A stretch of DNA of 61,265 nt from a virus, in IMG/VR virus record IMGVR_UViG_3300045988_080771, positions 1-61,265 of that record. One strand, written 5' to 3'. Under the pieces are notes generated by a model. It had not been told where the DNA came from. It searched no databases and saw nothing but the letters and a program-made list of their open reading frames with translations. The first letter of the stretch is position 1. Every line of letters starts with the position of its first letter. Position numbers and translations under genes: made by a program. This document shows, one piece after another, positions 1 to 60,676 of the stretch.

Positions 1-119
1 ATTTTTTTTTTTATGCCTCGCGAAAGAAACATGGTTTTTAATGAAAAAGTAAACTACTATAAAAGGAGTTATTATGACTTGTAATCTTGACACTGGACAT
101 GATTTTATCGAAGTTCAGA
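1..119. repeat. Terminal overlap: 1-119 is identical to 61147-61265 (unit genome length 61146 bp)
   Basis: The same string (a + 11 t + atgcctcgcgaaagaaac ... gaagttcaga) was read at both ends, at a constant offset of 61146. Confidence 0.95.
18..45 (+). promoter_or_regulatory. Conserved early promoter-like motif PE-1
   Basis: tcgcgaaagaaacatggtttttaatgaa; follows a T-run; AAGGAG and the ATG at 74 lie 29 nt downstream. Confidence 0.6.
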
Positions 120-307
120 ATATCAACGCTTATGAAGATTACGATGCTCTAGCTAAGTTACTGAATCGACATTCATATCTTATTACTAGGATTGATAATA
201 TGGAAACAGTAACTGATGGAGACATCTACAATATTCACGTACATATTCGACATTCGATATTCGCACCATATGTCATACATCTCATTAAGAAATACTTGAA
301 CATCTGA
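74..307 (+). CDS. hypothetical early protein (77 aa)
   Basis: ORF track; RBS aaaggag 7 nt upstream; preceded by PE-1 and followed by a hairpin. Confidence 0.75.
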   Translation: MTCNLDTGHDFIEVQNINAYEDYDALAKLLNRHSYLITRIDNMETVTDGDIYNIHVHIRHSIFAPYVIHLIKKYLNI

Positions 308-311
308 TTAT

Positions 312-345
312 AAGAGCTCATGACAAAATCGTGGGCTCTTTATTC
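312..345 (+). terminator. intrinsic terminator-like hairpin
   Basis: aagagctcatga-caaaa-tcgtgggctctt (12 bp including 2 G-U pairs) followed by a T-rich tail. Confidence 0.55.
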
Positions 346-346
346 T

Positions 347-375
347 TCGCGAAATAAACCTATCTCTTAATAGAA
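347..375 (+). promoter_or_regulatory. PE-2
   Basis: tcgcgaaataaacctatctcttaatagaa; ATG at 402. Confidence 0.6.
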
Positions 376-401
376 TATTAACCACTATTAAGGAGATTAA
401 A

Positions 402-590
402 ATGTACGATTCTATTATGAACTTTATTCCGTTCGTATCTATTATTGCCATTGTCGCGTATATTGTAAGCTTCGTTATCATCACCAAGATGATTCCGAAG
501 TTCAATAAGCGCAAGCCCAATGGACGTCATATTTACGAAACTAAAACTGTTTCATTAAGAGCGTATACTCGTGAATCCCTAAAGTATTGA
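402..590 (+). CDS. small membrane protein (62 aa, one TM helix)
   Basis: RBS taaggag; hydrophobic stretch FIPFVSIIAIVAYIVSFVIITKMI followed by a basic tail. Confidence 0.7.
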   Translation: MYDSIMNFIPFVSIIAIVAYIVSFVIITKMIPKFNKRKPNGRHIYETKTVSLRAYTRESLKY

Positions 591-596
591 TTCAAT

Positions 597-625
597 AAAC
601 CCAGAAATCTTCTGGGTTTATTTTT
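597..625 (+). terminator. intrinsic terminator
   Basis: aaacccaga-aatct-tctgggttt followed by atttttg. Confidence 0.7.
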
Positions 626-627
626 GC

Positions 628-655
628 TCGCGAGAAAATCATAGCCTTTAATGAA
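628..655 (+). promoter_or_regulatory. PE-3 (no ORF downstream)
   Basis: tcgcgagaaaatcatagcctttaatgaa; no RBS or ORF before the next promoter copy at 777. Confidence 0.55.
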
Positions 656-775
656 ATACTAGAGTGTATAACCAAAACACATTTGCTGCCAAGCCAAATC
701 GTAATAGCTTATCGGCAGAGGCGAATTAGACGGTCGCCCCGGAGTAAGCAACTTGAACATTTCACTTTATTTTTT
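656..775 (+). ncRNA. candidate small non-coding RNA or long leader transcribed from PE-3
   Basis: 120 nt with no RBS or ORF. Hairpins at 686-718 (ctgccaagc/gctt..ggcag) and 720-738 (ggcga/tcgcc). Ends in the T-run at 766-775. Confidence 0.3.
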
Positions 776-776
776 C

Positions 777-798
777 TCGCGAAAATTGACTTAATAAA
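777..798 (+). promoter_or_regulatory. PE-4 (short variant)
   Basis: tcgcgaaaattgacttaataaa; the TCGCGA and TTAAT elements are present but the spacer is about 7 nt shorter. Confidence 0.4.
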
Positions 799-815
799 AC
801 TATAAAGGAGTTATC

Positions 816-1061
816 ATGTTCAACATTATTCAGCTAATTTCCGATTTCATGACTAGCCTGCATACTGAAGAAATTGTACTGTTTAGCTTCGATGAAGAGG
901 CCATAGAACGTTTCATCAATGATGTAAAGATAATCGCACCTAAATGCGAAATTAACATAGCACATGATGGTTGTTATAGCATTACAGTTCGCCACATCTC
1001 AATAAAAGAGAAGCAGGCTATTGAAAGTCATGTGGCGAACTCCGCAATTTTACGTTGGTAA
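816..1061 (+). CDS. hypothetical early protein (81 aa)
   Basis: RBS aaaggag; ORF track. Confidence 0.7.
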   Translation: MFNIIQLISDFMTSLHTEEIVLFSFDEEAIERFINDVKIIAPKCEINIAHDGCYSITVRHISIKEKQAIESHVANSAILRW

Positions 1062-1111
1062 TTAAAAGATCAAAAGATAATCTATGATTTTAATACAGAT
1101 TCTCTTTTACC

Positions 1112-1140
1112 TCGCGAAAGAATCACATGCCTTAATAGAA
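1112..1140 (+). promoter_or_regulatory. PE-5
   Basis: tcgcgaaagaatcacatgccttaatagaa; ATG at 1169. Confidence 0.6.
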
Positions 1141-1168
1141 TATTAACCCACTATTAAGGAGTATTAAA

Positions 1169-1399
1169 ATGCCAAAGATCGATATTCGTGGCCGTATGAC
1201 CGCTCTTCGTGACCATCTGGCTTACACACCTTGCCAAGTGATCGATGTTGAACCACAACCCGACACCCTTAAGAATATTAAGGACGTCGATAAATGGTCC
1301 AAGATCGTACTCAAGATGGCATTGAGTGATGCCAGTCTAGAAGATCCGGTTTCTGCCGCACGAGTTATGGAGATCCTTAAGAATAAAGGTTACCTCTGA
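1169..1399 (+). CDS. hypothetical early protein (76 aa)
   Basis: RBS taaggag; ORF track. Confidence 0.75.
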   Translation: MPKIDIRGRMTALRDHLAYTPCQVIDVEPQPDTLKNIKDVDKWSKIVLKMALSDASLEDPVSAARVMEILKNKGYL

Positions 1400-1404
1400 A
1401 ATCC

Positions 1405-1437
1405 AGAGCCTGTGAGAAATCATAGGCTCTTATTTTT
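1405..1437 (+). terminator. intrinsic terminator (GAAA loop)
   Basis: agagcctgtga-gaaa-tcataggctct followed by tattttt. Confidence 0.7.
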
Positions 1438-1438
1438 C

Positions 1439-1467
1439 TCGCGAGAAAATCATAGTTCTTAATGATA
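1439..1467 (+). promoter_or_regulatory. PE-6
   Basis: tcgcgagaaaatcatagttcttaatgata; ATG at 1494. Confidence 0.6.
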
Positions 1468-1493
1468 AGCAAACCAATATAAAGGAGACACCT

Positions 1494-1601
1494 ATGTTTG
1501 ACTTTCTTAAGTTCCTTATCAAAGCTGTGCTGATTTCCGGAGCAGTTCTACTGATTGTTATAATCCTGTCTATCACTGGATTACTCAACATTCTTCTGTA
1601 G
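1494..1601 (+). CDS. 35-aa hydrophobic miniprotein (below the ORF-track cutoff)
   Basis: Translated by hand: MFDFLKFLIKAVLISGAVLLIVIILSITGLLNILL*. RBS aaaggag; flanked by PE-6 and a terminator. Confidence 0.6.
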   Translation: MFDFLKFLIKAVLISGAVLLIVIILSITGLLNILL

Positions 1602-1608
1602 AATCGCG

Positions 1609-1633
1609 AAGGTGCATCAGCACCTTTTTTTTT
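1609..1633 (+). terminator. intrinsic terminator
   Basis: aaggtgc-atca-gcacctt followed by a T9 run. Confidence 0.8.
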
Positions 1634-1661
1634 CGCGAAGAAATCACATGCCTTAATAGAA
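1633..1661 (+). promoter_or_regulatory. PE-7
   Basis: tcgcgaagaaatcacatgccttaatagaa, near-identical to PE-5 including its leader; ATG at 1689. Confidence 0.6.
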
Positions 1662-1688
1662 TATTAACCACTATTAAGGAGTATTAAA

Positions 1689-2024
1689 ATGCGTAACTAT
1701 ATCAAGCAGTTTATCAATATTGTCATTGCAGCTTTGCTGATCAGTATTGTTATTGAAGTTGGTATTGGCATTGGTGCTAACGTGTATAAAATGGTTGATG
1801 ACTATTATGCTTCACAGCATACCGAAATCGTTTCTGTTAATGATCAATTTGTTGACAGCTATATCGATACACCGGTTTTCTGTGATTCAAATGGTGTCGA
1901 CGATTTTTCATGTCGCGCAATGCAGACTAAAGTAACTATTGAATCAAAGCATCTCAATGGCGACATTGAAACAAACTACGAATATGGAGACGTATATTAC
2001 GAACCATTGGTTACTATTAAGTAA
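1689..2024 (+). CDS. membrane-anchored protein (111 aa)
   Basis: N-terminal TM helix IVIAALLISIVIEVGIGIGA; RBS taaggag. Confidence 0.75.
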   Translation: MRNYIKQFINIVIAALLISIVIEVGIGIGANVYKMVDDYYASQHTEIVSVNDQFVDSYIDTPVFCDSNGVDDFSCRAMQTKVTIESKHLNGDIETNYEYGDVYYEPLVTIK

Positions 2025-2026
2025 CT

Positions 2027-2060
2027 ATAAACCCTATGGAAACATAGGGTTTATATTTTT
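2027..2060 (+). terminator. intrinsic terminator, conserved hairpin family (CCCTATG-GAAA-CATAGGG)
   Basis: 12-bp stem ataaaccctatg/catagggtttat with a GAAA loop and a T5 tail. Confidence 0.8.
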
Positions 2061-2073
2061 CAGCACTTTATAC

Positions 2074-2101
2074 ACGCGAATAAAACAGCCCACTTAATGA
2101 A
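2074..2101 (+). promoter_or_regulatory. PE-8
   Basis: acgcgaataaaacagcccacttaatgaa; ATG at 2127. Confidence 0.55.
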
Positions 2102-2126
2102 AAGATAAATCTTTAAGGAGGCCATC

Positions 2127-2339
2127 ATGTCGCCATATATCTACAATATTATCTGTGCATTCGCACTTTTTGCTGGTGCAGCTTTACTGATCGGTATTGT
2201 TATCGATGATTTTGTTAACATTATTAATAATGTCATTGATAATGATAACTGTTTAAAGTTAAAGACTGTTCTGTCTGAAATCGGATCTCTGATAATTGCA
2301 GGTCTATGCGTAATGATAGGTATGAATATACTTATCTGA
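2127..2339 (+). CDS. small membrane protein (70 aa, 2 TM helices)
   Basis: RBS taaggagg; two hydrophobic segments. Confidence 0.75.
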   Translation: MSPYIYNIICAFALFAGAALLIGIVIDDFVNIINNVIDNDNCLKLKTVLSEIGSLIIAGLCVMIGMNILI

Positions 2340-2341
2340 TC

Positions 2342-2374
2342 ATAAGCCCTATGGAAACATAGGGCTTATATTTT
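2342..2374 (+). terminator. intrinsic terminator, same hairpin family
   Basis: ataagccctatg-gaaa-catagggcttat followed by atttt. Confidence 0.75.
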
Positions 2375-2391
2375 CGATAAAAGGAGTTATA

Positions 2392-2547
2392 ATGGGATTG
2401 GTAAATGGAACCGTAGTTCGAGCAATGGATTCCATGTATGGTGGTTACGAAGTAATCATTCATTTGGATGATCCGAATATGCTTGAGGAACTTAAAACTG
2501 GGCAGCATGTAGGAATCATCGATATTCTGGAAGGAGAAGCAGAATGA
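2392..2547 (+). CDS. hypothetical 51-aa protein (below the ORF-track cutoff)
   Basis: Translated by hand: MGLVNGTVVRAMDSMYGGYEVIIHLDDPNMLEELKTGQHVGIIDILEGEAE*. RBS aaaggag; its stop overlaps the next start (ATGA). Confidence 0.6.
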   Translation: MGLVNGTVVRAMDSMYGGYEVIIHLDDPNMLEELKTGQHVGIIDILEGEAE

Positions 2548-2741
2548 AAATCTGCTCATATTTGGCATCAATTGTTACTGGTATGTTGCTTATGGGATGC
2601 ATCATTATGGTTTCTATTAATCTTAATGCTAAAAGTGATGTGAATAAAGTCGAACATATAAAAACTGGAGATATCGATTGGGTCTGTATTGATAATGGTG
2701 ATTACACACGAAGTTGCGATGTTATTCAGAAATACCAATGA
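2544..2741 (+). CDS. small secreted or membrane protein (65 aa)
   Basis: N-terminal hydrophobic segment LASIVTGMLLMGCIIMV; RBS ggaaggag. Confidence 0.7.
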   Translation: MKICSYLASIVTGMLLMGCIIMVSINLNAKSDVNKVEHIKTGDIDWVCIDNGDYTRSCDVIQKYQ

Positions 2742-2759
2742 TATTCGAAAGGAGTTATT

Positions 2760-3257
2760 ATGCGTGTTTTGAGGATACTCGTCTATTATATTTTTGTGCC
2801 TAGAATCATTCCGGATTGGGATCTGTATAATAAATTCTGTGATGATTGTGTGGATAACAATGAAGATTTCCGCATGATCAGAATCGGATATTTGATGGAA
2901 CCTCAGAAACTATGGGTTCTTGATAAGTGTTTCCCAGAACTTATGAATACATTAAGAACATCAATAAATACATATTTTGATTATCGAAACAATTGGATAC
3001 CAATCGAGATGTTTGATTATAGTCAGCCATTCGAGAATATTGTTCGAGAATTCGATCGATTAAAAGAAAAGCATATTCTATGGATTAATTATACAGATTT
3101 GATTGCTTTATATGCTCCATATCTTTATGCCGCTCTCATTTCATTCTCGTATAAATTCCACGCATATGAGGATGCGTATGGCTTTGAAACATGCAGAGCA
3201 GATACAGCTGGTACACCAATCAAACGCGAAAAAATCATAGTCCTTAATGAAGTATAA
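2760..3257 (+). CDS. hypothetical protein (165 aa)
   Basis: RBS aaaggag; its last 11 codons are encoded by promoter copy PE-9. Confidence 0.75.
   Translation: MRVLRILVYYIFVPRIIPDWDLYNKFCDDCVDNNEDFRMIRIGYLMEPQKLWVLDKCFPELMNTLRTSINTYFDYRNNWIPIEMFDYSQPFENIVREFDRLKEKHILWINYTDLIALYAPYLYAALISFSYKFHAYEDAYGFETCRADTAGTPIKREKIIVLNEV
3224..3251 (+). promoter_or_regulatory. PE-9 (embedded in the 3' end of the upstream CDS)
   Basis: acgcgaaaaaatcatagtccttaatgaa; ATG at 3278. Confidence 0.6.
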
Positions 3258-3277
3258 CCACTATGAAAGGAGTCATA

Positions 3278-3436
3278 ATGACTTTCAAGCAATTCTTCAA
3301 GTATCAGTCCTATACTGCACTTATCTGGACTGCAATTTCCGCTGTTTTAAGCGTTTTTGCAGCTCTTGGAGTCAGTGCATTGTACAAGATCCATACAAAG
3401 AATGAATCTGAAAAAATCGAAGACTCTGAATCGTGA
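3278..3436 (+). CDS. 52-aa membrane miniprotein (below the ORF-track cutoff)
   Basis: Translated by hand: MTFKQFFKYQSYTALIWTAISAVLSVFAALGVSALYKIHTKNESEKIEDSES*. RBS gaaaggag. Confidence 0.6.
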   Translation: MTFKQFFKYQSYTALIWTAISAVLSVFAALGVSALYKIHTKNESEKIEDSES

Positions 3437-3444
3437 TTGATTCA

Positions 3445-3477
3445 ATAAACCCTATGGAAACATAGGGTTTATATTTT
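3445..3477 (+). terminator. intrinsic terminator, same hairpin family
   Basis: ataaaccctatg-gaaa-catagggtttat followed by atttt. Confidence 0.8.
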
Positions 3478-3504
3478 CGCGTAATAATCTTCGCCCTTAA
3501 TGAA
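3477..3504 (+). promoter_or_regulatory. PE-10
   Basis: tcgcgtaataatcttcgcccttaatgaa; ATG at 3518. Confidence 0.55.
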
Positions 3505-3517
3505 AGGAGGTTGACAC

Positions 3518-3808
3518 ATGTCAGCTCGAAAAGATAACATCAAGAAGATGGACCAAATCATATTTGAAAGCCTGGATTGTTCTCAGAGCAATCATCATCC
3601 CGATGAAGAAGAGTATGAAGAAGCCCTCAACAATGCGAAGAAAGTCGTTGACCTAAAGAATTCTTATAATTCTCAGCGTCACGAAAAGATCGTAAAGATT
3701 GTGGGAGCTGTCAGCTCTGTCGTATGCGTCGGAATGATGCTCGTCTTCGAACGATCCAATGCGATCACTACGAAGTCCCTTCCGTTCTTCCCGAAGCCAC
3801 ATATCTGA
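3518..3808 (+). CDS. hypothetical protein with a C-terminal TM helix (96 aa)
   Basis: RBS aaaggagg; hydrophobic segment IVGAVSSVVCVGMMLVF. Confidence 0.7.
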   Translation: MSARKDNIKKMDQIIFESLDCSQSNHHPDEEEYEEALNNAKKVVDLKNSYNSQRHEKIVKIVGAVSSVVCVGMMLVFERSNAITTKSLPFFPKPHI

Positions 3809-3819
3809 TTGACCACAAT

Positions 3820-3852
3820 AAAGCCCTGTGAAATTCACAGGGCTTATATTTT
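3820..3852 (+). terminator. intrinsic terminator
   Basis: aaagccctgtga-aat-tcacagggcttt-like stem followed by atatttt. Confidence 0.7.
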
Positions 3853-3867
3853 CTGAAAGGATTTATC

Positions 3868-4035
3868 ATGGCAACTAACAACAATAACAAGAACAAAGTA
3901 ACTTATTTCTCTGCAATCGCAATTGGTGTGGGAGTCGCAGCACTCTGTGCACAATCCATTTACCGAGCCGGGTATGATCACGGCGTTGCAGATACCAGTT
4001 TCAAGGCGATCTCCTGCATTCTCAAGTATCGCTAA
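3868..4035 (+). CDS. 55-aa membrane miniprotein on the + strand (preferred over the minus-strand ORF 3844..4044)
   Basis: Translated by hand: MATNNNNKNKVTYFSAIAIGVGVAALCAQSIYRAGYDHGVADTSFKAISCILKYR*. RBS gaaagga; co-oriented with every other gene. Confidence 0.55.
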   Translation: MATNNNNKNKVTYFSAIAIGVGVAALCAQSIYRAGYDHGVADTSFKAISCILKYR

Positions 4036-4055
4036 ATATTTCATAAGGAGTTATC

Positions 4056-4619
4056 ATGTATAAGAAGCTTGCCTATATTATTACAATTCTAACAGTCGCA
4101 TTTGTTTCTCTTACTGGCTGCGGAAGTGGTGTTTCATCCGCACCAGAACCTCAAGTCCAGAAATCAGAACAGAAGAAGGTCCAGAAAGAACTCGAGTATA
4201 TTGGAACATATTCTCAGAGTTTCGAATCTGATGATATCATTGGTGCATGTGACGATGGCGCAGAAGGCGGATGCAAGTATGAAGTCATACTGACATCAAA
4301 GAATATTACCGTATATTATACCAATAGTGTCGGAACCACTATGGTTTGGTATGGTAGTGCATCAGCAACCGATGTCACAAAGGACTACAGCAGTATCAAG
4401 AAAGCATATTCCATAGTGTCAACTCTTGATCCCGACTTCAGTTCCAAACCCAATGCATCAACCGCAATGTTCGGTTACGAAGGACATCATAAGAAGTTCA
4501 CGTACATCAATAGCAATGGCACAAAACATATTGAAATGGAAGTACCGGATTCTTCTGAAGATGCCATATTTGATACAACGAACATCAATCTATATTATCT
4601 GACAAAGGATGTTATCTGA
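4056..4619 (+). CDS. predicted lipoprotein (187 aa)
   Basis: Signal peptide MYKKLAYIITILTVAFVSLTG|C with lipobox L-T-G-C; RBS taaggag. Confidence 0.8.
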   Translation: MYKKLAYIITILTVAFVSLTGCGSGVSSAPEPQVQKSEQKKVQKELEYIGTYSQSFESDDIIGACDDGAEGGCKYEVILTSKNITVYYTNSVGTTMVWYGSASATDVTKDYSSIKKAYSIVSTLDPDFSSKPNASTAMFGYEGHHKKFTYINSNGTKHIEMEVPDSSEDAIFDTTNINLYYLTKDVI

Positions 4620-5197
4620 TGAAGAAACATATTGTGATCATCGGTCCATCTGGATCTGGAAAGACAACCCTTCAAAGAGCTCTTATCGATTTCGGATGGA
4701 AGGCTACAGTTTCTTATACAACAAGACCCATGCGTCCATCAGAAACTGATGATTTTCCATATCATTTTAGTGATGATCGAGAATTTGATCAGTTGGTTGA
4801 TGACGGCTGGCTATCCCTTGTTCGAGAGTATCGAGTCTGGAATGGACAAACATGGAAATATGGTTTCCCAATTTCAGATCTTAGAGCGAATGATCAAACA
4901 GTTTCTATTCTTGATCCATCGGGATATTTGGAACTGAAAGAAATGATCGATGACGTGTATGGTGTTTATATGGATATTCCGGAAGACGTAATCCGTTATC
5001 GATTACTTGCTCGAGGTGACAAGCCCGAAGAAATTGATCGACGAATCAAAGCTGACTTCGGAGACTTCGCTTATATTCGTCATAACTTCAGCAATGTATG
5101 TAATTTGCGGATAAATACTGTGAGAAAACCGTCACAGGATGCTGAACGAATCATCAATTATATTAATGCAGCAGAACGATCCGCGAAAAAATCATAG
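4619..5197 (+). CDS. guanylate kinase-like nucleoside monophosphate kinase (192 aa)
   Basis: P-loop GPSGSGKTT plus YTTRPMRPSE..D...YHF, matching the guanylate-kinase signature; its start overlaps the upstream stop (TGATG). Confidence 0.7.
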   Translation: MKKHIVIIGPSGSGKTTLQRALIDFGWKATVSYTTRPMRPSETDDFPYHFSDDREFDQLVDDGWLSLVREYRVWNGQTWKYGFPISDLRANDQTVSILDPSGYLELKEMIDDVYGVYMDIPEDVIRYRLLARGDKPEEIDRRIKADFGDFAYIRHNFSNVCNLRINTVRKPSQDAERIINYINAAERSAKKS

Positions 5198-5208
5198 CAC
5201 TTAATGAA
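5181..5208 (+). promoter_or_regulatory. PE-11 (overlaps the stop codon of the kinase gene)
   Basis: ccgcgaaaaaatcatagcacttaatgaa; ATG at 5236. Confidence 0.6.
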
Positions 5209-5235
5209 GTATAAACCCTCTACAAAGGAGAAAAT

Positions 5236-5592
5236 ATGACTGACGAGAACATTACTATTGACGAAACCACCGTCGATCCGAAGGATCAAAAGACGTCAAA
5301 GGTAAAGGAAAAGTTCCAGAAAGTCAAGTCCTGGTGCAAAGAGCACAAGGGAGAAATCATAAAAGACGCACTGTTCATCGGAGCAGGAGCTGCCGCAGTT
5401 GTGATCGCTAAGATCGCTACTAATAACAGTTCCGAAGATGAATATATGACGTATGCTTATGACGACTCCGTTGAAATCTCTGACAAGACTGACGAAGATG
5501 GAAACCCTTACTGTCTGATTTCCGCTAAATCCTCAGATGACGATGATTCCGAAGAATCGGATGATTCCAACGTCGAATCTACTGAAGAGTAA
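5236..5592 (+). CDS. membrane protein with a very acidic C-terminus (118 aa)
   Basis: TM helix ALFIGAGAAAVVIAKIA; tail SSDDDDSEESDDSNVESTEE. Confidence 0.7.
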   Translation: MTDENITIDETTVDPKDQKTSKVKEKFQKVKSWCKEHKGEIIKDALFIGAGAAAVVIAKIATNNSSEDEYMTYAYDDSVEISDKTDEDGNPYCLISAKSSDDDDSEESDDSNVESTEE

Positions 5593-5610
5593 TTTATTAC
5601 TGAAAGCCTC

Positions 5611-5644
5611 AAAGGCCTATGGAAACATAGGCCTTTAGCTTTTG
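5611..5644 (+). terminator. intrinsic terminator, hairpin-family variant
   Basis: aaaggcctatg-gaaa-cataggccttt followed by agctttt. Confidence 0.7.
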
Positions 5645-5657
5645 CCTAGGAGATATT

Positions 5658-6407
5658 ATGGATATTCAGCATATTTTAAATGTATCAAAACACTTCGTCA
5701 AGAAGAATTCGCCAGCTATCCTAACTGGAATGGCAGTTGTTGGTGTAGTAACTGTTGCAGTATCTGCGGTAAAGGATACTCATGTTGCTGATCGTAAACT
5801 CAAGATCGCTCGTATTGAAAGTGGTCGAGAGCTTACTAAGGTCGAAACCTTAAAGACGGCAGTCCCGTGCTATATTCCGACTGGACTTAGTGTTGTCGCG
5901 ACTCTTGCCTGCATTGGTGGTGCACTCAAAGCTGGTAATTCCAAGACCGCTGCATATGCTTCGGCATATACTATGGCCCAGGAAGCAGCGAAGAACTATC
6001 GAACTCAGGTTGAACGTATACTCTCTGAAAAAGATATTGAGAAACTGAACAACGCAGTCGCGGATGATGCGATGGCCAAGAGCGATTCCAAACCGATTGT
6101 AGTCGGAAGCGGTAAGGTCCTGTGCTTCGATCAGTTCTCTGGACGATATTTCGAATCCGACATGCAGAGTCTTCGTGAGATTCAGAACGATCTGAATGAA
6201 CAATTGCTCAGTGACATGTGGGTTTCCGTTAATGAGTATTACGATAAACTCAAGCTGGAACCGATCAATGCAGGCGAAGAATTGGGCTGGAATCCTGATT
6301 ATAAGGTAAAGCTTCAGTATAGTTCCCGCTTGTCAGAAGATGGACGTCCTTGCCTGGTGGTATCATTCGATACCAGTCCATCTGCTGATTTCTATCGCAA
6401 GTACTGA
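5658..6407 (+). CDS. membrane-anchored protein (249 aa), paralog of 8463..9377
   Basis: Shared N-terminal block KKNSPAILTG(M/V)..VVG and a second hydrophobic segment. Confidence 0.75.
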   Translation: MDIQHILNVSKHFVKKNSPAILTGMAVVGVVTVAVSAVKDTHVADRKLKIARIESGRELTKVETLKTAVPCYIPTGLSVVATLACIGGALKAGNSKTAAYASAYTMAQEAAKNYRTQVERILSEKDIEKLNNAVADDAMAKSDSKPIVVGSGKVLCFDQFSGRYFESDMQSLREIQNDLNEQLLSDMWVSVNEYYDKLKLEPINAGEELGWNPDYKVKLQYSSRLSEDGRPCLVVSFDTSPSADFYRKY

Positions 6408-6408
6408 T

Positions 6409-6436
6409 TCGCGATATTTTCATCGCCCTTAATGAA
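6409..6436 (+). promoter_or_regulatory. PE-12
   Basis: tcgcgatattttcatcgcccttaatgaa; ATG at 6461. Confidence 0.6.
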
Positions 6437-6460
6437 ACCTAGATATTCGAAAGGAGTATC

Positions 6461-6697
6461 ATGATCGAAAAGATCGTAAAAGCTATTTCCCAAACTATCA
6501 AACCCGATATTTCCACATCAGGAATCGCAACTGCTGTGATCGGAGCGATTGGTATTGGTCTCATCACTACGGGAACCCGTAAGATGACAGAATCAATTAC
6601 CGCCTCCGCACTGAAGAGCGAGCTTGATAAGGAGCCGGATTATTTGGTTCAGCTCTACGATGAACACCAAAACCCGGTACTCATCGGAAAACTCTAA
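6461..6697 (+). CDS. small membrane protein (78 aa)
   Basis: RBS gaaaggag; TM helix GIATAVIGAIGIGLITTG. Confidence 0.7.
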   Translation: MIEKIVKAISQTIKPDISTSGIATAVIGAIGIGLITTGTRKMTESITASALKSELDKEPDYLVQLYDEHQNPVLIGKL

Positions 6698-6702
6698 GTT
6701 TC

Positions 6703-6734
6703 ATAAACCCTACAAATCGTAGGGTTTATATTTT
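6703..6734 (+). terminator. intrinsic terminator
   Basis: ataaaccctac-aaatc-gtagggtttat followed by atttt. Confidence 0.75.
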
Positions 6735-6764
6735 AAATAATAACAACCAGAAAGGTATAACACA

Positions 6765-7307
6765 ATGATCAAGAAAACCCTCATTTACACCGATATCGAC
6801 GGTACTGAAGTCAAGGAAGATGCATATTTCCATCTGTCCCAGCGTGACCTCCGTCGTATGATCCGTAGCGGAGAGTTTGATCGACTTCAGGCAATTGCCA
6901 AGAAGATGACCGAACTCACCACGGATATGCCGGCTTCTGAGGTTATGAATACGGTTATGGACGCTGTTGATATTATCGTCAAGGCATCCTATGGCAAGCG
7001 TGTTCAGGATGAAGATCGCACTCGTTTCATCAAGAATGACAAGAGCACCGAACTCTTCATGGACTCCGAAGCATACGATGCTCTGATTGATGATCTGATC
7101 GACAATCCGGAATCTCTCACCGAATTCATGACTGATCTCTTCCCCGATAATGCTCGCAAGCAGGCCGACGATTATATTGAAAAGCATCCGGATGATGATG
7201 CTGTCAAGAACTATCTCGAAGCCAAGGCTCAGCTGGAAGCGAAGCAGGAAATCACTGAGAACGCTCAGCAGAATGTTCCTACCGTTCCGCCGATCGCGAA
7301 CATCTGA
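6765..7307 (+). CDS. acidic hypothetical protein (180 aa)
   Basis: ORF track; weak RBS aaagg. Confidence 0.65.
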   Translation: MIKKTLIYTDIDGTEVKEDAYFHLSQRDLRRMIRSGEFDRLQAIAKKMTELTTDMPASEVMNTVMDAVDIIVKASYGKRVQDEDRTRFIKNDKSTELFMDSEAYDALIDDLIDNPESLTEFMTDLFPDNARKQADDYIEKHPDDDAVKNYLEAKAQLEAKQEITENAQQNVPTVPPIANI

Positions 7308-8462: not shown

Positions 8463-9377
8463 ATGGACATCAAGTCTATGATCGTATCCAAGGCTTCTCG
8501 AGCTGGATTGGTGCTTAAGAAAAATTCACCTGCTATTCTCACTGGCGTTGGTGTAGTGGCTGGTGTAGCTGCAACTGGCTTCGCAGTATATTCTACGCTG
8601 AAACTCGATGGTGTGGTTACTGAGCACAATATTCGAGTCCAGCGCATTGAAAAGAACTATCGTAAGGCTCAGGATCCGGATACGGATATTGTCATCAGTG
8701 ATGATGATTACAAGCGTCAGATCGTTCAGCAGCATGTGTGGCTTGGTCTCTCTGTGACTGAGCTATATTTGCCGTCTATCGCATTCACTGCAGTGGCAAT
8801 TGCCTGCACCCTCAGTGCACATAATATTCTCTCGAAGCGTAATGCAGCTCTGACGGCAACAGTATCTATGCTTGCTGAGAAGTTGGCTGATTATCGAGCT
8901 CGTGTTGTTGAGAAATACGGTGCTGATATTGATCGCGAACTGTATCACGGAATCGAAGAAGTCGAAACCACCGATTCAGATGGAAAGACTCACACTGAGA
9001 AAGAAGCTCAAGACAATATTCCTGGATTCTCTCGGTTCTTCGATGAGTATAGTGTTTATTGGGATCGCGATCCTGGTCTGAATGTTGCTCATGTCCGTGC
9101 AACTCTCACGAATCTGAATCAGGAATTGATGGCAAAAGGTCATGTATTCCTGAATGATGCGTATCGTGCTCTTGGTCTTTCAGATACTCCAGCAGGTTCC
9201 GTTATGGGATGGATCTATGACAAAGAGCATCCGGATACTGTGATCGACTTTGGTACCAATCTCGGAACCAATACCGATGATCCGTGGGACTTCGTGCACG
9301 ATTGCCCATGGGATGGTAAGATGGGCATCAAGCTTGAGTTCAATGTCATGCCTGAGCCAATCTACAACCAGATCTGA
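8463..9377 (+). CDS. membrane-anchored protein (304 aa), paralog of 5658..6407
   Basis: Contains KKNSPAILTGVGVVAGVAATGFAV plus a second TM segment; RBS taaggag. Confidence 0.75.
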   Translation: MDIKSMIVSKASRAGLVLKKNSPAILTGVGVVAGVAATGFAVYSTLKLDGVVTEHNIRVQRIEKNYRKAQDPDTDIVISDDDYKRQIVQQHVWLGLSVTELYLPSIAFTAVAIACTLSAHNILSKRNAALTATVSMLAEKLADYRARVVEKYGADIDRELYHGIEEVETTDSDGKTHTEKEAQDNIPGFSRFFDEYSVYWDRDPGLNVAHVRATLTNLNQELMAKGHVFLNDAYRALGLSDTPAGSVMGWIYDKEHPDTVIDFGTNLGTNTDDPWDFVHDCPWDGKMGIKLEFNVMPEPIYNQI

Positions 9378-14554: not shown

Positions 14555-14576
14555 TAGATAAAGGAGTTAATCATGA
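14549..14576 (+). repeat. direct repeat copy 3 (28 bp, RBS portion only)
   Basis: aagtaatagataaaggagttaatcatga, identical to 14251-14278. Confidence 0.8.
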
Positions 14577-15466
14577 CTGGTATTGAAGAAACCTTTCCAG
14601 ACATTTATAAGAATGTTATGAAATATATGGACAATGATTTTATCAGAGTCGCGCATCTTCGTGATTCCACAACATTCTGTAACGATATGTATGAAAAGAC
14701 ATTGAAAAAGGTAGTCGATTTCGGAACTATTCGTAAGGATCGAACAGGAGTTGGTACTCTTTCAACATTTGGTCTCCGGATGGAATTCAATCTGTCGCTA
14801 TTTTTCCCACTGGTTACCACCAAGAAGGTATATTTGAAAGGTGTAATTGCCGAACTTCTGTGGTTCCTCAATGGTGATACCAACATCAAATACCTGAATG
14901 ACAATGGTGTTCATATTTGGGACGAATGGGCAGACGAGAATGGAGATCTCGGACCGATCTATGGTAAGCAATGGCGTGACTGGAATGGCGATCATATTGA
15001 TCAGATCCAAAATGCCATCGATCTTATCAAGAATGATCCATATTCTCGCAGGATCATTGTGAGTGCCTGGAATCCATCCCAGATTCCCGACATGGCTCTT
15101 CCGCCATGTCATACGTTCTTCCAGTTCTATGTTACGGAATCCGAACGTCTTGATTGTCAGATCTATCAGAGGTCTGCAGACATGTTCCTTGGAGTTCCGT
15201 TCAACATCGCATCATATTCTCTATTGACTATGATGATGGCCCAGCAGACTGGTCTTGAACCTGGACGTTTGATCTGGACTGGTGGCGATTGCCATATTTA
15301 TCTGAATCATTTCGATCAGGTTGAAACAGAGCTTCATCGAACTCCATATCCTTTCCCTACGATGAATATCGATAAAGCCAAGGATATTTTCAGTTACAAG
15401 CTTGAAGACTTCCATCTGGAAAACTACAAGTGTCATCCTGCAATCAAGGCTCCTGTGGCTGTATGA
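14573..15466 (+). CDS. thyA: thymidylate synthase (ThyA family)
   Basis: [31 protein letters not shown], catalytic ALPPCH, and [18 protein letters not shown] with the dUMP-type Asn. Confidence 0.9.
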
Positions 15467-17493: not shown

Positions 17494-17698
17494 TCAGATC
17501 ATTCTAACCATATTCGCAATCTTAATCATTATATTCGTAAACATTATAATCGGATCCAGAATCGATAAACTATTTGAAAGGATGAATCATGAAGACAAAA
17601 GTAAACCGCACCTCGAAGGAAGTCAAGAAGGAAGCAAAGAAAGCGATGAAGTGTCATTGCGATGCGTCCATTGTGATTCTAAGCCGAGTTCTCGATGA
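17486..17698 (+). CDS. small membrane protein (70 aa); its 3' part overlaps an alternative-frame ORF
   Basis: N-terminal TM helix IILTIFAILIIIFVNIIIG; ATGA-type overlap with the upstream gene. Confidence 0.5.
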   Translation: MIDQIILTIFAILIIIFVNIIIGSRIDKLFERMNHEDKSKPHLEGSQEGSKESDEVSLRCVHCDSKPSSR

Positions 17699-17765
17699 TA
17701 GTGGTCATGGAAGCTACCATTGTTGGTGCCCTGGTTGTGGTAAACAAGTGAACATCACGCGATAA
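17589..17765 (+). CDS. 58-aa zinc-ribbon-like protein (below the ORF-track cutoff)
   Basis: Translated by hand: MKTKVNRTSKEVKKEAKKAMKCHCDASIVILSRVLDDSGHGSYHCWCPGCGKQVNITR*. RBS gaaagga; its stop lies inside PE-13. Confidence 0.5.
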   Translation: MKTKVNRTSKEVKKEAKKAMKCHCDASIVILSRVLDDSGHGSYHCWCPGCGKQVNITR

Positions 17766-17784
17766 AATCACGCTCTTTAATGAA
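17757..17784 (+). promoter_or_regulatory. PE-13
   Basis: acgcgataaaatcacgctctttaatgaa; ATG at 17812. Confidence 0.6.
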
Positions 17785-17811: not shown

Positions 17812-18021
17812 ATGAACACTATTGTCGCAATCGCACTGATTGTCATTCTCAGTATTGCACTGATCTTCACCATTGCTACCGCATGTAACATTGCGAATGA
17901 ATCCGCATATGTTAAAACGGAATTGGTAAAGGTAAAGACTCTGCTAAAGACTGCATATGCTGTTAGTGACGATGCAACCAAAAATATTCTCGATAAAATC
18001 GATGAATTAAGCGTTTGCTGA
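17812..18021 (+). CDS. small membrane protein (69 aa)
   Basis: TM helix IVAIALIVILSIALIFTIA; RBS taaggag. Confidence 0.7.
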   Translation: MNTIVAIALIVILSIALIFTIATACNIANESAYVKTELVKVKTLLKTAYAVSDDATKNILDKIDELSVC

Positions 18022-18067: not shown

Positions 18068-18095
18068 CCGCGAATAAAACATCTCCCTTAATGAA
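18068..18095 (+). promoter_or_regulatory. PE-14
   Basis: ccgcgaataaaacatctcccttaatgaa; ATG at 18123. Confidence 0.6.
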
Positions 18096-18122: not shown

Positions 18123-18305
18123 ATGGTATCATTGATTGTAACGATCATCACCGTAGGCCTGGTCCTAATCGGTTATGAGATCGGTGACATATTCTTTGGA
18201 TCAATCCGTCGTAAGATTGAGATGAAGAATGAAGCCGAGAGTCATATCCTTAGGGACCAGTACGGAATCTATAATATCGATGACGTATTCAAGCCCAAAC
18301 GCTGA
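18123..18305 (+). CDS. small membrane protein (60 aa)
   Basis: The second in-frame ATG has proper spacing from AAGGAG; TM helix VSLIVTIITVGLVLIGY. Confidence 0.65.
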   Translation: MVSLIVTIITVGLVLIGYEIGDIFFGSIRRKIEMKNEAESHILRDQYGIYNIDDVFKPKR

Positions 18306-22370: not shown

Positions 22371-22916
22371 ATGGTAATGTGGTCTATAATTCCCCAACAT
22401 CCGAAATACACAGCATCGAATACTGGCGAGGTTTGCCGAATAAGCACTGGACATATTCTTAAGAAGTTCAAGATGCAAAATGGTTATAATTATGTCTGCA
22501 TCGATCGAAAGAATATTTTAGTCGCTCGTCTCGTCTGTGCTGCATTTATGGAAGACTTTGATATCGAAGACAGCTACATTGTCGTCCATCATATTCATGA
22601 TAAGAGCGATGATTCACTCGATAATCTTGAAATCATGGAACGTAGTGAGTTGCTTGATCTTGTTGAGCCATATTTCGCCGATGGTCTTCCGCGAGGTCGC
22701 GCCAGTCTGAAATACGGAACGAAATACGATAAGAAAGCTGTGCCGATTCAATGCATTGAAACTGGTCACATATTTCCATCCGCTAAACATGCTGCCAAAT
22801 GGCTCGAGCAAATCGGATGTGGATATTTGTGTGCCGGTTATGTTTATCGCATTGCAAAAGATAGCAAGGAAGGAGTTCGAGGTTACCATTTTCGACGTTT
22901 GGATAAACGCGAATAA
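22371..22916 (+). CDS. HNH homing endonuclease (HNH_3/NUMOD4-like)
   Basis: N-terminal W..IP..P.Y..S..G.V, HNH core VVHHIHDKSDDSLDNLEIM, and a C-terminal IENR-like segment IQCIETGHIFPSAKHAAKWL. Confidence 0.75.
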   Translation: MVMWSIIPQHPKYTASNTGEVCRISTGHILKKFKMQNGYNYVCIDRKNILVARLVCAAFMEDFDIEDSYIVVHHIHDKSDDSLDNLEIMERSELLDLVEPYFADGLPRGRASLKYGTKYDKKAVPIQCIETGHIFPSAKHAAKWLEQIGCGYLCAGYVYRIAKDSKEGVRGYHFRRLDKRE

Positions 22917-22934
22917 AACATGGCCCTTAATGAA
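22907..22934 (+). promoter_or_regulatory. PE-15 (overlaps the stop codon of the HNH gene)
   Basis: acgcgaataaaacatggcccttaatgaa; ATG at 22957. Confidence 0.6.
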
Positions 22935-24243: not shown

Positions 24244-24272
24244 TCGCGAAAAAAACATGGGCTTTAATAGAA
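24244..24272 (+). promoter_or_regulatory. PE-16 (97-nt leader before the RNAP-like gene)
   Basis: tcgcgaaaaaaacatgggctttaatagaa. Confidence 0.55.
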
Positions 24273-24368
24273 GGAGAAAAATAAAGAATATAACGTTAAA
24301 TATCGCCATATTTGCGTCATATTCTATTCTTTTTGCCTTAAATTTGCATTCAATTAAGGAAAAGTTAA

Positions 24369-27344: not shown

Positions 27345-27361
27345 AAGTTTGGTGATGCTAA

Positions 27362-27709
27362 ATGTCTGTTGAATACATGCTTACTACTATTGATAATCCT
27401 TTTAATCCTTTTATTGATTTCGATCGTTGGTATGGCTTTGACATTACTCAAGGTCATTACACAAGTGAATACATCGCTCGAATCGCTGTTGACAGTGCAC
27501 TATTGTCTGATGAAGAACGTTCTGAGGAATACAATCGTGCTATTCAATGGATCTTAGACAATGATGTTTTAGGATTGTATGTTCGTATTACGAAAGACAA
27601 TGCTGATTCTATTATTGCTAAGAACCTGAAACATTCTGAAGATTCTTTAGATAATTCTTTAGATAATTCTTTGGATAATTCTTTGGATAATTCTTTGGAT
27701 AATTCTTGA
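27362..27709 (+). CDS. hypothetical protein (115 aa) whose C-terminus is encoded by the 12-bp tandem repeat
   Basis: ORF track; tail DSLDNSLDNSLDNSLDNSLDNS. Confidence 0.65.
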   Translation: MSVEYMLTTIDNPFNPFIDFDRWYGFDITQGHYTSEYIARIAVDSALLSDEERSEEYNRAIQWILDNDVLGLYVRITKDNADSIIAKNLKHSEDSLDNSLDNSLDNSLDNSLDNS

Positions 27710-27733
27710 GATAATTCTTTTGAATCTTTGAAT
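27638..27733. repeat. tandem 12-bp repeat, about 7-8 units (GATAATTCTTTR)
   Basis: Read directly: gataattcttta / gataattctttg x3 / gataattcttga / gataattctttt, plus degenerate flanking units. Confidence 0.9.
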
Positions 27734-27737
27734 GTTG

Positions 27738-27898
27738 TATTTGAATCTCAAATGAATTGAATTGTTTGCATTCATTCGATTGCTATTATTGATTCGCTTC
27801 AAATCAATGTCCGTTTATTTCTCCTTAATTTATTGGTTAATAGATTGATAATAGTAATCGATTGTGTGCATTCAATTCGATTCATTTGAATTCAAATC
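27738..27898. repeat. imperfect inverted repeat with ~45-bp arms (27738-27782 and 27856-27898)
   Basis: tatttgaatctcaaatgaattgaattgtttgcattcattcgattg compared with the reverse complement of aatcgattgtgtgcattcaattcgattcatttgaattcaaatc. Confidence 0.7.
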
Positions 27899-27985
27899 TT
27901 AATTCATTTAATTTAAATTTAAAATATTTTTAATTTAAAATAATTTAAATACTTTAAATATAAATATAATATGGATTGAATATAA

Positions 27986-28056
27986 ACCCTCCCCGGGGGT
28001 CCGCGAAAATATACCCCCTCCCGCATCGCCGCCCTCCTCAAAAAATCTCCGCGGGG
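27986..28056. other. isolated GC/C-run-rich tract within an AT-rich intergenic region (candidate cos/pac or protein-binding site)
   Basis: ccctccccgggggtccgcgaaaatataccccctcccgcatcgccgccctcctcaaaaaatctccgcgggg, immediately after about 70 bp of near-pure A/T (27905-27975). Confidence 0.4.
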
Positions 28057-28279
28057 ATATTTTGGGAGACCTTTTTAGTGGTCCAGGGCGAATATGTTAT
28101 ATTTTAGAGTGGTAAGCCTGTCTGTCAGTGGGTTTGGTAAACAAAACTGCGCAGACATGACCCTTTAAACTAGGCATAAAGGGGCGCAAACTCCTTTCGA
28201 AGCCATTAAAACTCATTGATGGACAGCCTTATCTCTCTAAAAGCCTAGTGATCTATACTTGAAATGGAGTCGATTTGTC

Positions 28280-28639
28280 ATGCCTAGACCTAAACGGACT
28301 AATGAACCGGTGCTCCCACCGCTTCAACCGGCTACCACACCGGAAGAACGAGAGAAACAGCTCATAAATCTGGCCGAGAATGAGAGCGAACGTCTAATGC
28401 GAGAGCATAGAGCTCCTGCTTCACTCCTCATTCATTATCTTAAACTTGGTTGCACTCGTGAACAGGTCGAGTTGGAGAAGATTCGACAGGAAACCGAGCT
28501 TACCAAGGCGAAGGTAAAGACAACCGAGACGGCTGAGCAACTCCAGAGCATGACTCGTGATGCGATGGATGCTTTCCGTGCATATTCTGGAAACATGAAT
28601 GGAGATGATGCAGATGCTTCTGACGGATTCCGTGATTAG
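28280..28639 (+). CDS. hypothetical protein (119 aa); possible small terminase subunit by position
   Basis: First gene after the large intergenic region; ATG with RBS ggag; basic N-terminus and a coiled-coil. No family assignment possible. Confidence 0.3.
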   Translation: MPRPKRTNEPVLPPLQPATTPEEREKQLINLAENESERLMREHRAPASLLIHYLKLGCTREQVELEKIRQETELTKAKVKTTETAEQLQSMTRDAMDAFRAYSGNMNGDDADASDGFRD

Positions 28640-60156: not shown

Positions 60157-60184
60157 TCGTGAAAAAATCCTTTCATATAATGAA
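60157..60184 (+). promoter_or_regulatory. PE-17 (TCGTGA variant with a TATAAT -10)
   Basis: tcgtgaaaaaatcctttcatataatgaa; ATG at 60196. Confidence 0.5.
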
Positions 60185-60530: not shown

Positions 60531-60532
60531 AA

Positions 60533-60627: not shown

Positions 60628-60630
60628 TAG

Positions 60631-60675: not shown

Positions 60676-60676
60676 T

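Follow-up and report, generated by a model that had tools for sequence, protein, structure and literature searches.

Here we report on a repeated 28-base element in the phage genome of IMG/VR virus record IMGVR_UViG_3300045988_080771 and on the RNA polymerase (RNAP) gene that accompanies it. The whole stretch of 61,265 nucleotides is referred to as the window and corresponds to a genome unit of 61146 bp once its terminal overlap is removed. The repeated element is real, and it behaves as a dedicated phage promoter class unlike sigma-70, as the initial annotation of this DNA had proposed. Two readers had been suggested, the phage's own RNAP or the host RNAP aided by a factor that binds TCGCGA; the phage enzyme is the better supported of the two, as the architecture of the motif tracks its gene across phyla. 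Our preferred reading, to which we give an even chance, is that the phage polymerase uses the element as its cognate promoter, because matching elements recur in phages of very different bacteria that share the same polymerase. The phage enzyme is favoured because motif elements foreign to sigma-A are conserved across hosts of two phyla, because the motif strictly co-occurs, co-oriented, with the polymerase gene, because the helix–turn–helix (HTH) domains fused to this enzyme often score as sigma region 4, because neither a sigma factor (Pfam, early and middle open reading frames (ORFs) scanned) nor another polymerase candidate was found in the window, and because the window copies depart from sigma-70 promoters and canonical promoters are not enriched where we examined them.

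A search of the window for TCGCGA-N13-CTTAAT with at most two mismatches returned 25 matches against 6.25 expected, a number reached by none of 100 shuffled sequences. The weight matrix, which was derived from the window copies themselves, places 18 unique sites, plus 61164, at 30–42 bits and every other window position at 13 bits or below; shuffled sequence yields 0–3 matches at 8 bits or more. All copies lie on the + strand. Of the twenty copies originally counted, 18 stand as unique full copies; the one at 777 is shortened, and 61164 duplicates site 18 through a 119-bp assembly overlap, the first 119 bases of the window being identical to its last 119. In the window the element reads TCGCGA-AAAAAT-CAT-AGCC-CTTAAT-GAA, and its conserved core includes an invariant CA at positions 13–14 that had not been singled out before. 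The fixed geometry described at the outset is borne out, with a spacer of 13 nt between box and hexamer in 18/18 full copies and no indels, as is the replacement of CTTAAT by TATAAT in copies 60157, 60503 and 60677; the other copies have CTTAAT or TTTAAT. The three degenerate-box copies all pair with a perfect TATAAT, and an additional A (TAAT-A-GAA) is present in four copies (347, 1112, 1633 and 24244). A strong hairpin and T-run terminator directly precedes ten of the 18 copies, and terminator-like sites are enriched in positions 1–7000 (13 vs 4.3 expected). The stretch 24271–60157 is free of copies, and thus the late operon (28–60 kb) has none, again as first noted.

On sequence grounds the window phage is a siphovirus of the actinophage/Lactococcus-1706 supercluster, and its closest isolate is a Bifidobacterium asteroides phage with 52% polymerase identity (tblastn). 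The element is not restricted to one genome. It was found in BitterVaud1 (Bifidobacterium; 7 copies, TCGCGA..CAT-CGCT-TATAAT-GAA, of the form TTCGCGAnnAAAACATCGCtTAT(A/G)ATGAA), Circum (Arthrobacter; 9 copies, TCGCGT-AAATTA-CAT..TATAAT, of the form TCGCGTAAATTACAnGGGCTATAAT(A)GAA), Duffington (Gordonia cluster DJ; 6–9 copies, TCGCAnAAATTACAYGYCCTATAATGAGACC) and P078 (Lactococcus; 10 copies, wTTTAw-GTTTTA-CAT-ACCC-TATAAT-GAA, of the form TTTAAGTTTTACATACCCTATAATGAAAGG), so that the motif accompanies the polymerase in five lineages with hosts of two phyla. An earlier version has been published for the Gordonia cluster DJ phage Vardy, where a 50-bp motif with TATAAT, present in 5 copies in one genome, was read as a sigma-70 -10 element (PMC9671010). 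Like the copies in the window, the Vardy motif is intergenic and co-oriented, lies in an array of small membrane-protein genes and is found next to terminators; it is the same element in a sister lineage, and its equivalent was found here in the DJ phage Duffington. The Vardy report differs in that it draws no link to a polymerase, makes no comparison across clusters or phyla and does not analyse the geometry. In the relatives the copies occur on the coding strand only, within the small-gene array and the replication region, and in every genome some copies have nothing behind them but a short structured RNA with a terminator.

The common skeleton opens with an upstream box and six A/T-rich bases; CA and five variable G+C-rich bases come next, before a hexamer that ends in AT and is followed by GA(A/G). 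The box reads TCGC(G/A)n in the actinophages and wTTTAw in the lactococcal lineage. A clade logo was built from 235 unique sites in 62 loci with at least two matrix matches, among the IMG/VR exact-pattern matches listed. The resulting consensus, CGCGA-W6-CA-N5-YWTWAT-GAA, combines an upstream box in which C2, G3 and C4 reach 98–100%, G5 89% and A6 79%, a central C13 (100%) and A14 (94%), and a 3' part with T22 at 100%, W at position 23, A24 at 97%, T25 at 99%, G26 at 95% and A27 at 89%. Single genomes contain the hexamers TTTAAT, CTTTAT, TTTTAT, TATAAT, TATTAT, TCTAAT and TGTTAT, and an independent set of loci selected by the polymerase also shows TTTTAT, TTTAAT and TCTAAT alongside TATAAT. 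In the closest relative found (L126, 85% polymerase identity) the polymerase-proximal copy is kept amid diverged flanks, its hexamer being TATTAT vs TTTAAT in the window.

The candidate reader of the motif is a 991-aa protein encoded at 24369–27344 on the + strand, with GADFDGD at residues 532–538 and HTH motifs near residues 58–89 and 105–134, as well as a C-terminal HTH_7 at about 962–987. Its match to PHROG 4291 ('RNA-dependent RNA polymerase') scores 1110 bits, and a Foldseek search with its AlphaFold model (predicted local distance difference test (pLDDT) 80, predicted template modelling score (pTM) 0.67) returned QDE-1 as the best match (E 3.5e-7), plant RDR2 next and beta-prime subunits weakly; a sequence search of PDB gave no match, and the fold search alone succeeded. 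Given the GADFDGD motif, the PHROG 4291 match and the QDE-1 fold match, the modelled product is a single-chain two-barrel polymerase of the QDE-1/YonO kind. It is the sole DxDGD protein in the window, none being concealed, as in P23-45, within the tape-measure or other virion proteins, and a Pfam scan of early and middle ORFs, covering most, not all, of that region, identified no sigma factor.

Among isolated phages tblastn with the polymerase retrieved 250 relatives, which include BitterVaud1 (Bifidobacterium, 52%), phages of Arthrobacter (AM/AU), Gordonia (DJ), Streptomyces, Curtobacterium, Microbacterium and Rhodococcus, further Lactococcus 1706-like and Faecalibacterium phages and human-derived contigs, and in these the gene lies almost always within about 0.5 kb of the right genome end. 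A large protein collection holds at least 8000 homologue clusters, many with precomputed Sigma70_r4 or r4_2 hits, and in hundreds of SEA-PHAGES genomes the polymerase is labelled merely 'helix-turn-helix DNA-binding protein'. The supercluster has been described, and its DxDGD motif and terminal HTH domains noted, without an analysis of promoters (Koert et al., bioRxiv 10.1101/842583). The helix NES(T/S)VR(S/A)L of the second N-terminal HTH motif (HTH-2) is kept in the lineages with TCGCG or TCGCA boxes and differs in P078, whose box differs too; this covariation agrees with a phage-polymerase model and is suggestive, if confounded by phylogeny. A segment HYGxxxxSGRYPWGSG (residues 20–45; window 24369–24500) is invariant in 30/30 aligned homologues and predicted to be disordered (pLDDT below 50), and may represent a protein–protein contact or a targeting signal.

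The relation between motif and gene was examined in 80 IMG/VR loci (953 kb) that were picked solely by polymerase peptide patterns and whose proteins show 42–51% identity to that of the window. At 14 bits the clade matrix gave 63 matches on the polymerase strand and 0 on the opposite strand. All 63 lie upstream of the polymerase gene (499 kb), 28 of them in the last 1 kb, with 0 matches in 216 kb of polymerase coding sequence and 0 in 237 kb downstream. A copy occurs within 2.6 kb of the polymerase start codon in 34/80 loci. In the 16 long loci without a matrix match a relaxed core still fell 15 times on the gene strand vs 1 on the opposite strand, several of these matches about 0.9 kb upstream of the gene. 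On this comparison a copy ahead of the nuclease and polymerase genes is a conserved feature of the clade.

Three properties expected of sigma-70 promoters are missing from the window copies. Firstly, the sole conserved upstream box, TCGCGA, is 13 bp from the hexamer in 18/18 copies and does not qualify as a -35 element; neither a TTGACA-like -35 at 17 bp nor a TG extension was found in any lineage. Secondly, sigma-A needs a flipped-out A at -11 (sigma region 2), and the position equivalent to '-11' is T in 15/18 window copies. Across the clade (235 sites, 62 loci) this base is T in 66%, A in 26%, C in 5% and G in 3% of sites, where the share of T is somewhat inflated by seeding the set with YTTAATGAA and scoring it with the window-derived matrix, a bias that counts against our preferred reading. 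The view of CTTAAT as a -10-like element is not sustained by these frequencies, even though the four known-host isolates do have the A, in TATAAT-like hexamers. Thirdly, the initial annotation expected starts 6–8 nt past TTAATG, as would suit sigma-70, and this expectation is probably wrong. The indirect test lies in the spacing of ribosome-binding sites: a Shine–Dalgarno core with an open start codon could be assigned for 189/235 sites, and the distance from hexamer to core is bimodal, with a sharp peak at 4 nt (33/189) and a broad mode at 15–25 nt. In 55/189 sites the core follows T25 by 7 nt or less, with the start codon then 15–20 nt away. The 4-nt spacing is exemplified by window copies 3477 and 60157 and by the GenBank-annotated BitterVaud1 gene at 43725, and copy 3477 is in addition protected from upstream read-through by a terminator. 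A start 7 nt past the hexamer would cut off the ribosome-binding site; the start therefore has to fall within about 3 nt of the hexamer. By this spacing argument transcription must begin about 3 nt or less past TWAT, most simply at the conserved G26, and copy 3477 would confine the start to 3502–3505. With G26 as the start, T-W-A-T would occupy about -4 to -1, CA would lie at about -13/-12 and CGCG at about -24 to -21, an arrangement characteristic of the promoters of dedicated phage polymerases (T7, T3, SP6) and foreign to sigma-70 promoters. The motif as a whole is long and co-oriented (18 copies of 28 nt), and its conservation reaches the putative start site, through G26-A27-A28. Sigma-70-type sites are not enriched, with 28 vs 24.1 expected in positions 1–7000, 46 vs 39.8 in 16–30.5 kb and 34 vs 40.0 in P078, and no canonical host promoter was found ahead of the polymerase gene in the window or in P078.

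These observations also bear on the alternative that the element is a '-10-only' promoter of host sigma-A aided by the A/T-rich tract, with the phage polymerase transcribing only the late operon, from a promoter that would follow the polymerase gene; common descent or an auxiliary site would then account for the additional conserved bases. We regard this as unlikely, if a serious contender. TATAAT or TAnnAT occurs in BitterVaud1, Circum, Duffington, P078 and three window copies, the TA-n-n-AT variation in BitterVaud1 is what sigma-A tolerates, intrinsic terminators flank the units, and the Vardy authors read their motif in this way (PMC9671010). Under this alternative the bootstrap problem vanishes, the host enzyme making the polymerase from a motif copy, and the role of YonO in late-operon transcription (PMC5467207), the shared gene order and the lack of the motif in the late operon would find a place. 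It conflicts, however, with the T at -11 in 15/18 window copies and with a clade in which T exceeds A and in which C or G also occur, with the lack of a -35 element or TG extension in every lineage, and with the sharp peak of ribosome-binding sites 4 nt past the hexamer, which is incompatible with a start 7 nt downstream. Nor does it account for CA 13–14 and GAA 26–28, which are not sigma-A elements and yet are conserved across hosts of two phyla.

If the phage polymerase does use the element as its cognate promoter, an HTH domain of the enzyme would recognise T-CGCG-A, the upstream box (about -25 to -20), further contacts would be made with the A/T-rich tract and the CA (about -13/-12), the T-W-A-T block just upstream of the start would serve as the melting region, and initiation would take place at the conserved purine run G-A-A, its G being motif position 26. 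Some 18 co-oriented promoters, most with an upstream intrinsic terminator, would express the early small genes and two short non-coding RNAs, and the same promoters would serve the replication genes and the polymerase gene itself as an autogene. Transcription of the late operon would start at 22907/24244 and pass over the joined cohesive ends, or start at a separate promoter; in an extended form of this reading, the polymerase and its element might serve the whole programme by reading through the joined ends of the genome. The motif itself, its conservation and geometry, its co-occurrence with the polymerase gene and the protein fold are observed; the enzyme that binds, the exact start and the origin of the first polymerase molecules are what we infer. 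Several facts weigh against this reading. The polymerase gene sits behind its own putative promoter, so that the first molecules need a source in the virion or the host, and there is no evidence that the polymerase is packaged in the virion. The YonO enzyme of SPbeta, the one studied member of its type, transcribes a late operon that directly follows the gene for the enzyme (PMC5467207), and the gene order in the window is that of SPbeta, with a late operon that has no motif copy. The hexamer is TATAAT-like, equal to the sigma-A -10 consensus, in 4/4 known-host isolates. Finally, the promoters are paired with classical hairpin and U-run terminators, which stop bacterial RNAP, and the flap domain for hairpin-dependent termination is absent from YonO (PMC5467207). 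In a mixed scheme, the host enzyme might seed the system through the TATAAT-type copies and the phage enzyme then take over; of the polymerase-proximal copies, 21/35 have TAnnAT.

The palindromic and near-invariant upstream box (CGCG 89–100%) invites the further alternative that the host RNAP is redirected by a phage factor binding TCGCGA, in the manner of T4 MotA/AsiA, a factor that may even be supplied by the HTH of the 991-aa protein. Its 13-bp distance to the hexamer fits the 11–13 bp between MotA box and -10 in T4, the three window copies with a degenerate box have a perfect TATAAT as if compensating, and HTH motifs occur in several ORFs and in the polymerase. Like T4 middle promoters, the element has an upstream box in place of a -35, about 12–13 bp from an A/T hexamer; unlike it, those promoters keep a TAnnnT -10 and start 7 nt downstream, and the window copies mostly have no A at -11. 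The 13-bp box spacing is in fact the only trait of a T4-type middle promoter that agrees in the window. Redirection of the host enzyme meets the same start-site conflict as any sigma-A-dependent model, sigma appropriation still needs the A at -11, no MotA- or AsiA-like protein appeared in Pfam and PHROG scans of the proteins examined, and factor-free early promoters, which would also be needed, are not evident. We therefore consider such a mechanism quite improbable.

We hold it to be very improbable that the element is no promoter at all but an operator or 'stoperator', a 5'-leader RNA signal for processing or translation, or a replication or packaging repeat. Its single orientation and its position between genes or overlapping gene ends recall the stoperators of Cluster A (PMC13313380), and a half-motif-like CCGCGAAAATATAC occurs in the cos-like block described below. 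Yet copies follow directly upon terminators and precede ribosome-binding sites by a fixed short distance, some, with only a short structured RNA plus a terminator behind them, amount to complete transcription units, the motif itself does not form a stable RNA structure, these genes have no alternative promoter candidates, and no repressor or integrase was found among the proteins scanned against Pfam and PHROGs. The start-associated sequences of Cluster K/EF actinophages were also considered and rejected; motif and start codon are separated by anything between 15 and over 45 nt, in two modes, and some copies have no ORF.

Comparison with known phage systems places the proposed promoter between several paradigms. 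Promoters of the T7/T3/SP6 class measure about 23–28 bp and consist of an upstream specificity region and an A/T-rich melting block abutting +1, as in SP6 ...CTATA|GAAG. The window element resembles them in being long, contiguous, highly conserved and present in many co-oriented copies with hairpin terminators, and its ...TWAT|GAAG/GAAA parallels the SP6 sequence down to the conserved initial purines. By analogy, it would work like a T7/SP6-class promoter for an unrelated polymerase fold: unlike the T7 class, the window enzyme is two-barrel (QDE-1/YonO-like) with a fold unrelated to T7 RNAP, recognition is proposed to involve the fused HTH rather than a specificity loop, and the motif covers the early genes and the polymerase gene instead of the late genes.

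The window enzyme shares with YonO of SPbeta a single-chain two-barrel organisation, a size of about 100 kDa, the DxDGD motif and a gene immediately upstream of the late operon (PMC5467207). YonO is a DNA-dependent RNAP with one start site for the late operon, whose promoter and need for extra factors are still undefined (PMC5467207). The published account describes no fused HTH in YonO, a difference that is drawn from the description only (PMC5467207), and tblastn with the window polymerase did not retrieve SPbeta. The motif was also sought in SPBc2, in the roughly 245-nt region between the primers used for YonO primer extension (located by an exact match for the forward primer and, for the reverse primer, by visual placement with one mismatched nucleotide); this region holds just a partial CATTTATGAGG, for which chance suffices, and the comparison was dropped. 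A functional parallel is offered by Thermus phage P23-45 (gp96/gp64) and phage N4, in which two-barrel or virion polymerases read non-sigma motifs at the start (PMC10770324). As in those phages, the motif precedes early genes including the polymerase gene, and its presence tracks the polymerase among relatives (PMC10770324). In P23-45 and N4 the host polymerase handles the later classes and the bootstrap is solved by a polymerase delivered with the virion (PMC10770324), whereas the window has one DxDGD protein and nothing that points to its packaging.

The literature searched contains no paper on promoters of this polymerase family, and the Vardy note is the only prior sighting of the motif. 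No account in that literature connects the motif with the polymerase, follows its conservation across clusters and phyla, defines the consensus with its CA(13–14) or describes the non-sigma geometry. At somewhat less than an even chance, the element would represent the first defined promoter for QDE-1/YonO-like polymerases, recognised independently of sigma through a sigma-region-4-like fused HTH and with its start at the G after T-W-A-T, so that in a very large clade spanning Actinobacteria and Firmicutes the early and middle programme would rest on one protein of about 100 kDa and a 28-bp element. The promoter of single-chain two-barrel phage polymerases, open since YonO, becomes testable with a precise candidate and a predicted start. 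If true, the model would show how a minimal relative of the cellular RNAPs finds promoters without sigma, explain how a phage group with a low-GC genome crosses phylum boundaries, and yield a compact, orthogonal system for gene expression in Gram-positive bacteria. If instead the host polymerase reads the element, CTTAAT and TTTAAT constitute an unexplained exception to the rule of an A at -11.

The copies, all on the + strand, are distributed as follows. The first (TCGCGAAAGAAACATGGTTTTTAATGAA, 18–45) follows a terminator hairpin with an 11-T run and drives the coding sequence (CDS) 74–307; its duplicate at 61164–61191 is the product of the 119-bp terminal assembly overlap. The copy at 347–375, of the CTTAAT-A-GAA subtype, follows a terminator (312–340) and drives CDS 402–590. 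As had been stated, two copies, 628 and 60503, have no adjacent ORF; the former (628–655) is followed by about 120 nt of non-coding sequence and may be the true promoter of CDS 816–1061 with a long leader. Next comes the shortened variant TCGCGA-N7-CTTAAT (777–804), which was missed by the weight matrix, has lost the conserved CA through a 6-nt deletion and may be a decayed copy. The A-insert copies at 1112–1140 and 1633–1661 drive CDS 1169–1399 and, after a terminator at 1608–1627, CDS 1689–2024; the copies at 1439–1466 (after terminator 1405–1430) and 2074–2101 (18 nt past terminator 2026–2055) drive CDS 1494–1601 and CDS 2127–2339.

Four copies overlap the end of the upstream CDS, in agreement with the first description: 3224–3251 overlaps CDS 2760–3257 and drives CDS 3278–3436, 5181–5208 overlaps CDS 4619–5197 and drives CDS 5236–5592, 17757–17784 overlaps CDS 17589–17765 and drives CDS 17812–18021, and 22907–22934 overlaps the HNH gene 22371–22916 and drives the nuclease genes upstream of the polymerase gene. 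The copy at 3477–3504 (CTTAATGAAAGGAGGTTGACACATG) lies after a terminator hairpin and has AGGAGG 4 nt past the hexamer and an ATG at 3518. Two nucleotides past the stop of CDS 5658–6407, the copy at 6409–6436 is the first promoter of the replication module, and that at 18068–18095, which follows a strong terminator hairpin (-29 kcal/mol), drives CDS 18123–18305 and the genes for single-stranded DNA binding and helicase functions.

At the other end of the array, the copy TCGTGA...TATAAT at 60157–60184 (TATAATGAAAGGAGTCTATCATG) begins 2 nt past the last late gene, with AGGAG 4 nt past the hexamer and an ATG at 60196. The TATAAT copy at 60503–60530 follows a terminator and drives a non-coding RNA about 149 nt long, which is closed by a terminator of its own (fold z-score -3.3); behind the latter, the copy TCGCAT...TATAAT (60677–60704) drives CDS 60729–61100. 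The non-coding unit (60531–60676) contains a tRNA T-arm-like CCAGGTTCGAACCCTGG, ARAGORN and Rfam gave no match in it, and Rfam and tRNA scans of the window found nothing. Comparable units, made up of a promoter, a short RNA and a terminator, are present in P078, where they are duplicated, and in BitterVaud1, Circum and Duffington.

The polymerase-proximal copy (24244–24272), of the TTTAAT-A-GAAGG subtype, ends 97 nt before the ATG of the polymerase gene, as annotated. Its leader (24272–24368) folds into a long hairpin that opens with the initial bases of the transcript (AGAAGGAG...) and precedes a U-run (z = -2.3), and the polymerase-proximal copies of many relatives (loci L146, L155, L158 and others) are of a TATAAT-A-GAAGG subtype, likewise with a 5' hairpin and T-run. 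Judged from its predicted fold, the hairpin and U-run leader looks like an attenuator controlling polymerase expression.

The route to the late genes is the main gap in the phage-polymerase and host models alike. On the + strand no terminator-like site was detected between 24.3 and 28.3 kb. The G+C-rich block at 27955–28085 (CCCTCCCCGGGGGTCCGCGAAAATATACCCCCTCCCGCATCGCCGCCCTCCTCAAAAAATCTCCGCGGGGATATTTTGGG) is almost 100% identical in the 85% relative L126, amid diverged flanks. The physical left ends of Circum and Duffington are similar to it (window CTCAAAAAATCTCCGCGGGGATATTTTGGG, Circum CCCCAAAAAATCCCCGGGGGAATATTTT), and it is therefore probably a cohesive-end/terminase site, in which case the polymerase gene would lie at the right genome end. 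The same block contains CCGCGAAAATATAC, which resembles the upstream half of the motif. A shared late promoter downstream of the polymerase gene was sought by k-mer sharing among 27 loci, which revealed only cos-like blocks (GGGATATTTTG, CCCCGGGGG) and a CTCCTTTCG leader element; the latter recurs in about 9–12 of the 27 loci. The corresponding region of the window, 27344–28280, consists of the cos-like block and a conserved leader and has no recognisable shared promoter. Extended -10-like candidates for a late promoter, TGTTATATT at 28094–28102 of the window, TGCTATAAT at 699–707 of Circum (L208) and TGCTATAGA at 98–106 of Duffington (L209), were set aside as single instances without statistical support; lying a short way in from the left genome end and ahead of the late operon, they are possible host-type late promoters. 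A non-coding block upstream of the small-terminase gene (28165–28262, ...ACATGACCCTTTAAACTAGGCATAAAGGGGCGCAAACTCCTTTCGAAGCC...) is kept in L126 and partly in BitterVaud1.

All genes of the window are co-directional, on the + strand. The array of small, often membrane-protein genes runs from 60.2 kb across the junction to 6.4 kb and is followed by replication and nucleotide-metabolism genes (6.4–24.2 kb), the polymerase gene, and late genes encoding terminase, portal, a protease–capsid fusion, endolysin and tape measure (about 28.3–60.1 kb). A pair of DUF6353 paralogues is divided between the early array (5658–6407) and the replication module (8463–9377). The primase-polymerase gene, a single gene of about 3.9 kb in Circum and Duffington, appears split in the window, where 10764–13724 matches positions 8–949 of PHROG 4210 and 15564–16640 matches positions 953–1296; the 1.8-kb insert between the two parts holds a thymidylate synthase gene (14573–15466) and three small ORFs, two of them paralogue-like. 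In P078, a 360-nt gap upstream of the lysin and polymerase genes (L125 29340–29600, record 49340–49600) contains repeated TCCCGGATTTTT units that look like iterons. Finally, about 6 tandem copies of a 12-nt unit, GATAATTCTTTG/A, are found at 27640–27715 of the window, at the 3' end of the small ORF 27363–27710 and upstream of an A/T-rich repeat region (27720–27975), and their copy number differs in L126, where the alignment shows a 35-nt gap.

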